The notes beneath the pieces were generated by a model. That model had not been told where the DNA came from. It did not search any database and saw only the letters and a list, made by a program, of their open reading frames with translations. A DNA stretch of 64,000 bases, taken from NCBI RefSeq assembly GCF_003334405.1, contig NZ_QOWM01000002.1; one strand, written 5' to 3'. Source of the stretch: Escherichia coli (GTDB lineage Bacteria > Pseudomonadota > Gammaproteobacteria > Enterobacterales > Enterobacteriaceae). The position numbers were made by a program, and so were the translations under genes. Shown one piece after another: positions 24,226 to 25,490 of the stretch (within the stretch, counting starts at the first letter, position 1; every line of letters starts with the position of its first letter).

Positions 24226-24942
24226 TCACAAGTAGACTACGCTTATCACAGCTTTCCCATCAAGTTCGATTTTTTCTGAACCGCCTAAATCATTCGCGAT
24301 AGATGCGCTCACCTGAAGCGGTATAATGGCGTTCGTTACAGGAGTTGGGGTTGTTTCACCTGGTTTTACAAAGGTGTAATAATAGCTTTGATCGACTGCA
24401 AGCGGATAAGCGGTGAGCGTTTGCCATGCTCTTTTTTGCCCTGTTATGACGGCATCTGCACCTGCTATTGATACAGCTAACGTCTGGCTACCATTGCTGG
24501 CACTAATGTTGTTGCTATCAATTAACACGGCATAACTACCGATATTTTTATTATCTTTTGTTTTCCCTAAGCCGAATAAGCGCGTTGTCTGGCTAATATA
24601 ACCTCCGCCATTTAAGGTATATTTTACACCACTCTGACCCCCACTATCTTTTCCGGTGGTCATACTATCCATTCGTGTATCACGAGCGGTAATCGCAATG
24701 CCGGTAGCGGATTCGCAAGTTATAGTCATATTAATATTACGTGTTCCAATCTGTGTGTAGTGCTGCGTTGAAAGTCTATTGACTGAATGACTACCGAAGT
24801 TAACAACTCCGCCGTTGCTTAGTATTGGAGTACAAGCTGCAGCTTCCAGAGTCACCTTAACGTCAATTGATACTCTATCAGCGGCTTGCGCTGACATGGC
24901 AAAAAAGGCACTTCCGGCAATCAGTAATTTTACATTGTTCAT
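24226..24942 (-). CDS. yhcF: Secreted DUF1120-type protein, paralog of GltF (likely fimbrial subunit of the cryptic chaperone-usher cluster)
   Basis: 238 aa with signal peptide; C-terminus IELDGKAVISVVYL parallels GltF IKLDGNVTISVQYL. Confidence 0.85.
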   Translation of the reverse strand: MNNVKLLIAGSAFFAMSAQAADRVSIDVKVTLEAAACTPILSNGGVVNFGSHSVNRLSTQHYTQIGTRNINMTITCESATGIAITARDTRMDSMTTGKDSGGQSGVKYTLNGGGYISQTTRLFGLGKTKDNKNIGSYAVLIDSNNISASNGSQTLAVSIAGADAVITGQKRAWQTLTAYPLAVDQSYYYTFVKPGETTPTPVTNAIIPLQVSASIANDLGGSEKIELDGKAVISVVYL

Positions 24943-25490
24943 TTTGCCTCCACCAGGACCGTCAGATTGCCTGTAATATCTGTCATGTCGGTTAGTTCCC
25001 CTTCATCCTTAAAAGCTGGAGCCATTGTCAGTGTGAGGCTAACGCTTTTACCGCTATCAATTACCACTTCTTGACCATTTTGCATAAACACCAGCCAATT
25101 ATTGGGGGAAGTACTAATTGATGCTGTTCCTGTGCTGCCCGGATTGTCATTTTTGCCACTGGCTAACGCCAGGTCGAGATTGTTACTACCTGAAAATGCA
25201 TCGCTGGCGATCAGATTTAATGAACCATTCGGGCCAAATCCAAATCCGTTGTTGGAAATATTAGCGGTATTCAACTGAACACGAATATGAGCGTCCTGAT
25301 CGCATTGCATTACCAGCGTGATTGTTCTGTCTGCTAATTGTGTTGTTTTACCCCGGTCAACTTGGCGCATGGCAGCACTTCGTTTGCCATAGTCGATATT
25401 TTGTATGCTACTGGAGATATTACACTCTGCCTGAGCGGCCATGGCGAAGTTCAGCAGCAGGCATCCTGTTATTATCCGTTTCATTGGCAC
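24939..25490 (-). CDS. yhcE: Secreted fimbrial-like protein YhcE (intact reading frame)
   Basis: 183 aa with signal peptide MPMKRIITGCLLLNFAMAAQA; overlaps neighbouring genes by a few bp. Confidence 0.7.
   Translation of the reverse strand: MPMKRIITGCLLLNFAMAAQAECNISSSIQNIDYGKRSAAMRQVDRGKTTQLADRTITLVMQCDQDAHIRVQLNTANISNNGFGFGPNGSLNLIASDAFSGSNNLDLALASGKNDNPGSTGTASISTSPNNWLVFMQNGQEVVIDSGKSVSLTLTMAPAFKDEGELTDMTDITGNLTVLVEAK

Follow-up and report, generated by a model that had tools for sequence, protein, structure and literature searches.

Background

The yhcE gene of Escherichia coli K-12 is split by a copy of IS5, and the same gene is uninterrupted in the 64,000-nucleotide stretch of E. coli DNA analysed here (hereafter the window). 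This raises the question which of the two alleles is the original one, and in which state the fimbrial operon gltF-yhcADEF is found where yhcE itself is continuous. For K-12 a published table gives the locus as 'gltF-yhcF, beta, IS5::yhcE' and lists it as absent from W, Crooks and one further strain (PMC3032704), and IS5 copy 10 of BW25113 sits in yhcE (PMC11677980). E. coli C does not carry the IS5 insertion that K-12 has in yhcE (PMC6805351), and a complete yhc locus without IS elements was described for 13 phylogroup A enterotoxigenic E. coli (ETEC) genomes in a study which also reported a premature stop in yhcD of one ETEC strain, 401900 (PMC5216030). The difference in yhcE between K-12 and natural strains is thus already known from publications; mildly new are the frequency of a frameshift in the usher gene yhcD and the predicted pilin fold of YhcE, which comes without a donor strand.

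A continuous yhcE gene between yhcD and yhcF

The open reading frames of the window include a frame of 183 codons on the minus strand (24939..25490), which opens with GTG and corresponds exactly to the continuous yhcE frame that the original prediction had placed between the usher gene and yhcF. It is located between yhcD (25481..27697, or 25481..27861 if counted from the native start codon) and yhcF (24226..24942). The likelier start of yhcE is the ATG at 25484, the GTG at 25490 adding two codons upstream. An AGGAG Shine-Dalgarno sequence lies 7 nt upstream of this ATG, which overlaps with the yhcD stop codon in the sequence ATGA, and a second ATGA overlap connects the yhcE stop codon with the yhcF start. 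Position 25484 is also the RefSeq choice in K-12 and in a strain that is identical to the window over the 3.9-kb yhcF-yhcD region, where the identical open reading frame is labelled 'YhcE family protein'. Read from this ATG, the coding sequence (24939..25484, minus strand) is uninterrupted and encodes 181 amino acids.

The N-terminus of YhcE, MKRIITGCLLLNFAMAAQA followed by EC after the putative cleavage site, consists of a basic n-region and a hydrophobic core and ends in an A-x-A motif for cleavage. As far as can be read from the sequence, it looks like a standard Sec signal peptide, in keeping with the signal peptide noted earlier for this frame. A lipoprotein reading of the ITGC motif at residues 5-8 was rejected, since homologues do not share the cysteine, which moreover lies too near the N-terminus.

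The IS5 target site is empty in the window

The MG1655 segment 3,325,000-3,394,000 (NC_000913.3) and its annotation were aligned to the 64-kb window with BLAST. The window is collinear with MG1655 positions 3,326,668-3,391,867 in reverse orientation and aligns in two blocks of 99.97% and 99.99% identity. The differences consist of the absence of IS5R, one A fewer in the A8 run of yhcD, and 10 SNPs (window positions 3827, 8448, 10422, 11840, 20101, 23215, 23734, 28848, 47799 and 53043); no other insertion was found between window and MG1655, the sole gap being 1 nt long. IS5R (1,195 bp, with a 4-bp duplication of the target CTAA) occupies 3,365,556-3,366,750 in MG1655, carries insH10 and is the only mobile element annotated in the aligned interval. 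The two BLAST blocks share exactly the four bases CTAA, and in K-12 IS5R lies between them, which identifies an insertion with target duplication and leaves the site empty in the window, where a single CTAA is present at 25114..25117; in K-12 these bases flank IS5R as a duplicate.

In the annotation of NC_000913.3, yhcE (b4569) is a pseudogene in two pieces with IS5R/insH10 between them, so that the IS5 insertion assumed by the original prediction for the K-12 reference is confirmed; an uninterrupted reference yhcE, with which the original prediction would have been incompatible, is excluded by this annotation. Joined together, the two K-12 fragments are 100% identical to window positions 24939-25484. 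K-12 yhcE thus occupies the same locus with the same neighbours, and its coding sequence becomes identical to that of the window after removal of IS5 and one CTAA. As it stands, however, the K-12 allele would yield an N-terminal part of 123 residues that continues into residues from IS5, whereas the frame in the window runs continuously through 181 codons. Searches of the 64-kb window with IS5 produced chance matches of at most 16 nt only, and the 16-bp terminal repeat of IS5 had no match in the window at up to 2 mismatches. Neither the 1,195-bp IS5 nor its 16-bp repeats nor the duplicated CTAA of the K-12 yhcE::IS5R allele is therefore present, and the further claim that the window holds no transposase-like reading frame or IS terminal repeats is confirmed, the alignment to MG1655 being free of insertions in the window.

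Only ten SNPs in 64 kb mark the source of the window as a natural strain that is very closely related to K-12 but not derived from it. The opposite view, namely a K-12 derivative that got rid of IS5 by precise excision or by IS-free engineering, could point to the overall identity of 99.98% to MG1655 and to the fact that precise excision would restore just the sequence seen in the window. However, 10 SNPs and a homopolymer difference within 64 kb are far above the divergence between K-12 sublines; in addition, natural isolates are identical to the window over 3.9 kb, and the uninterrupted allele occurs in 782 genomes (see below). An origin from K-12 by loss of IS5 is therefore extremely improbable, and an IS-free engineered K-12 strain as the source was rejected on account of the 10 SNPs.

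Distribution of yhcE alleles among E. coli genomes

In a sample of 5,426 complete E. coli genomes, yhcE was detected with a 500-nt probe in 1,142, every match showing at least 99% identity. Of these 1,142 carriers, 782 had a continuous gene, defined as a match covering 80% of the probe or more. The K-12 yhcE::IS5 junction, for which a full-length match to an 80-nt probe across the boundary of yhcE and IS5 was required, was present in 341 genomes; among the matches listed, 40 out of 40 carriers are K-12 laboratory strains or derivatives (MG1655, C600, J53, DH5alpha, ER strains and evolved MG1655 lines). Other lesions of yhcE, for example an IS903B insertion, were seen in about 19 genomes. The 3.9-kb yhcF-yhcD region of the window recurs with 100% identity in natural isolates from cheese, poultry, water and humans. 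The same five genes gltF-yhcADEF without an IS element are found in E. coli C and in colonisation-factor-negative ETEC of phylogroup A, and the studies of these strains likewise regard IS5 at this place as particular to K-12 (PMC6805351, PMC5216030).

Intact yhcE is the ordinary wild-type form among E. coli carrying the yhc island, and the split by IS5 is a peculiarity of the K-12 laboratory lineage. Since precise excision of IS5 would leave an identical sequence, the term ancestral rests here on population frequency rather than on the sequence of the site; the population data support the view that the empty CTAA site is ancestral and did not arise by precise excision, as we infer. The suggestion that the window derives from a lineage with the ancestral yhcE is thereby strengthened, the listed junction carriers all being K-12 laboratory derivatives. 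The most probable reading, to which we assign a probability of roughly 0.93, is that the window represents a natural strain of the phylogroup A type close to K-12, which has the wild-type yhcE from before the insertion and whose operon is compromised at yhcD instead.

According to this explanation, yhcE is the fourth gene of a cryptic beta-class chaperone-usher operon with the order gltF-yhcA-yhcD-yhcE-yhcF. IS5 jumped into the CTAA within yhcE in the K-12 laboratory lineage and duplicated these four bases; the insertion divides yhcE behind codon 123 and probably blocks the translationally coupled yhcF as well. In the strain of the window, on the other hand, the A8 run of yhcD (codons 3-5) has lost one A.

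A frameshift in the usher gene yhcD

Apart from IS5, the window and K-12 differ by just one indel, a single base in a homopolymer at the start of yhcD, and the proposal that the usher is frameshifted in place of an interrupted yhcE proved to be correct in that the run is A7 in the window (27850..27856, minus strand; yhcD codons 3-5) and A8 in K-12, a -1 frameshift. The K-12 gene starts with ATG TTA AAA AAA ACG, which is translated to MLKKTLLAYTIGFAFSPPANA followed by DG. Because the run is one base shorter in the window, the native ATG at 27861 reads MLKKRYWPTPLVLPFLPQPMQMV and then a stop codon; the frame shifts after codon 4, and the shifted frame (27790..27861, minus strand) comprises 23 codons. 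The main frame of yhcD (25481..27697, minus strand) has 738 codons from its first canonical start and encodes a beta-class usher, which scores 1200.9 bits with NF011832 (cut-off 723). Although this frame is open to about 27885, no ATG, GTG or TTG was found in it upstream of 27697.

Loss of the A thus means that translation from the native yhcD ATG ends after 23 codons, and that the remainder lacks a canonical start and a signal peptide. In the strain identical to the window, PGAP lets yhcD begin at a CTG at 27844, by which the frameshift is hidden and no pseudogene is called; a start at this CTG would strip the basic n-region from the signal peptide of YhcD. The window hence does not encode an usher that is intact, translatable and provided with a signal peptide. 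Judged from the reading frames, the usher is probably non-functional in this strain, but some expression of yhcD from the CTG start may occur.

The tract was counted as A7 versus the form longer by one base, as the A8 of K-12. A7 was present in 29 of 1,135 records (2.6%) and the longer form in 1,106. In most yhc loci of the E. coli C and ETEC type yhcD is in frame, whereas the window has the rare A7 frameshift, comparable to the premature stop of ETEC strain 401900. A7 is a minority allele and not general to strains with an intact yhcE. The 29 records represent 28 strains, which come from a wide range of laboratories, hosts and countries. In 13 of them the adjoining 1,076 bases are also identical to the window, with the SNP at 28848 shared as well; others, among them strains 2452, MB19 and NCTC9966, differ from the window in this adjoining stretch, which gives at least two A7 haplotypes.

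The difference of one base could be a homopolymer error of assembly or sequencing, the usher being A8 in truth. Miscounted homopolymers are frequent in long-read and older assemblies, and an allele seen in just 2.6% of genomes would be compatible with such errors. The recurrence of A7 in 29 records from 28 strains and the 1,076 adjoining bases shared by 13 of them fit inheritance, however, and make an error quite unlikely. We conclude that A7 appears to be a real allele, which seems to have arisen more than once or to have diverged since.

Fimbriae are often phase-variable, and the A7/A8 run might be a programmed switch for usher and fimbria. The run is located at the very beginning of the gene (codons 3-5), both lengths occur naturally, and A7 is found on at least two haplotypes; the tract length is polymorphic between strains (A7 in 29, the longer form in 1,106), as would be expected for a contingency locus. 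Eight bases are short for such a locus, though, and 97% of the genomes are in frame, as with an occasional slip; inactivation of the operon by IS elements in many genomes suggests decay rather than regulation. We therefore consider programmed phase variation at this run very unlikely.

For studies of beta-class fimbriae, both K-12 with its IS5 in yhcE and A7 strains like that of the window are poor choices, and an A8 strain without IS elements at the locus, such as E. coli C, is better suited.

YhcE as a putative subunit of beta-class fimbriae

Close relatives of YhcE were found only in Escherichia in an exhaustive search, together with about 25 distant full-length relatives of 21-34% identity. 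The alignment of 26 sequences contains two invariant cysteines, C21 and C61. A few of the distant relatives, 375-394 amino acids long, have two domains in tandem (among P0047, P0049, P0056, P0060, P0066 and P0070), and one protein of 2,742 amino acids matches YhcE in seven stretches. Similarity of YhcE to the Pfam family DUF1120 (PF06551) is marginal, with an E-value of 0.11; 9 of 26 homologues reach E-values of 0.1 or below, and none of the 26 reaches 0.001. Comparison of the YhcE family with YhcF and GltF by hhalign resulted in a partial match (67 columns, probability 81%), and pairwise BLASTP of YhcE against YhcF in a weak N-terminal match with an E-value of 0.017. Searches of PDB chains with YhcE and with the 26-member profile returned nothing meaningful, and in PHROGs no match was obtained for YhcE, YhcF or GltF.

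On a metagenomic contig (L006, 1107-6269) a homologue with 34% identity is part of the gene order DUF1120, chaperone, usher, YhcE-like, DUF1120, and a second homologue follows a YhcD-like usher. The Salmonella systems described by PRK15301-PRK15304 include a homologous usher, which is recognized by NF011832, DUF1120 subunits and a small YhcE-like protein; with 54.3 bits against PRK15301 (cut-off 226), YhcE is a distant homologue of this protein and not the same equivalog. YhcE belongs to the conserved components of beta-class chaperone-usher operons.

The AF2 model of YhcE has a pLDDT of 88.4 and a pTM of 0.80, is ordered only from residue 21 onwards and shows a predicted Ig-like pilin fold. 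Together with the Sec signal peptide and the conserved disulfide pair, YhcE thus shows the features of a pilin subunit. Sequence identity to classical subunits (the pilin domains of FimH and PapG, and FimG, FimI, PapE and PapH) is only 8-17%, and in contrast to the classical tip subunits FimH and PapG, YhcE, which is known here from its sequence and predicted structure, has no lectin domain.

The function of YhcE has been called unclear (PMC5216030), and no Pfam or NCBIfam threshold is reached by the protein. On these grounds yhcE could be regarded as a chance open reading frame rather than a real gene. However, homologues with as little as 21-34% identity keep the length, the two cysteines and the position in the operon, with the usher gene on one side and a DUF1120 gene on the other; the pilin fold is predicted confidently, and yhcE is equipped with a Shine-Dalgarno sequence and ATGA coupling at both ends. 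A chance origin of the frame is practically negligible, and yhcE is best regarded as a real gene.

Mature YhcE begins with E-C, and in most homologues the conserved cysteine likewise follows the cleavage site after only 1-2 residues; an N-terminal donor strand is absent from YhcE. YhcF and GltF have 16-20 residues of alternating hydrophobicity before the first cysteine. Their C-termini are VVYL and VQYL, respectively, and the penultimate tyrosine is missing in YhcE. In donor-strand exchange, a subunit that accepts a strand but is unable to donate one can take the distal tip only. Without a donor strand, YhcE would thus be restricted to the distal tip, if it is assembled at all. With modest confidence we propose that YhcE may be a single-domain tip or initiator subunit, a reading that provides the protein, to which no role has been assigned in the literature, with a testable one. 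A more far-reaching scenario combines three steps: YhcE would initiate the beta-class fibre, K-12 would have lost the fibre via its initiator, and A7/A8 would switch the organelle in phylogroup A. Taken jointly, these steps are unlikely.

The gltF-yhcADEF island

The five genes form an island of about 5.9 kb (24171..30049) with a G+C content of 0.38-0.47, compared to 0.56-0.58 in the flanks, which fits an acquired and probably silenced operon. The first gene, gltF (28728..29492, minus strand), encodes a DUF1120 protein and putative major subunit; it is followed by yhcA (27882..28556, minus strand), which encodes the periplasmic fimbrial chaperone (319.7 bits with NF007392, cut-off 183), by yhcD and yhcE, and by yhcF (24226..24942, minus strand; 238 codons), which is coupled to yhcE by the ATGA overlap and encodes a fimbrial subunit of the DUF1120 type that has a donor strand at its N-terminus. 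Both annotation and profiles assign GltF and YhcF to DUF1120-type models. With an usher of the YhcD subfamily, a PapD-like chaperone and DUF1120 subunits, the operon has the composition of a beta-class chaperone-usher system, in agreement with the published assignment of yhcD to the beta clade (PMC3032704, PMC5216030, PMC3559732). Literature searches found no paper that pairs DUF1120 with the term fimbrial and no published expression or assembly data for the Yhc fibre. Deletion of yhc in an ETEC strain had no Caco-2 adhesion phenotype (PMC5216030).

Among complete E. coli genomes, about 21% carry the island and about four fifths lack it, and Yhc has been classified as a sporadic fimbrial type (PMC3559732). 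In strain EC7518, 53 bp are found in place of the island. Next to it lies yhcG (window 22914-24041; DUF1016/PDDEXK nuclease family), which is variably present as well: in one class of genomes it is missing along with the island, and in another it is disrupted by an IS element.

The apparently repeated inactivation of yhc suggests ongoing decay. Over window positions 24100-28000, the mobile elements inside the operon of many natural isolates comprise IS1, IS2, IS3-family elements, ISEc16, ISSen4, IS903B and a group II intron, and a single IS2 insertion in the operon is common to many pig-associated strains.
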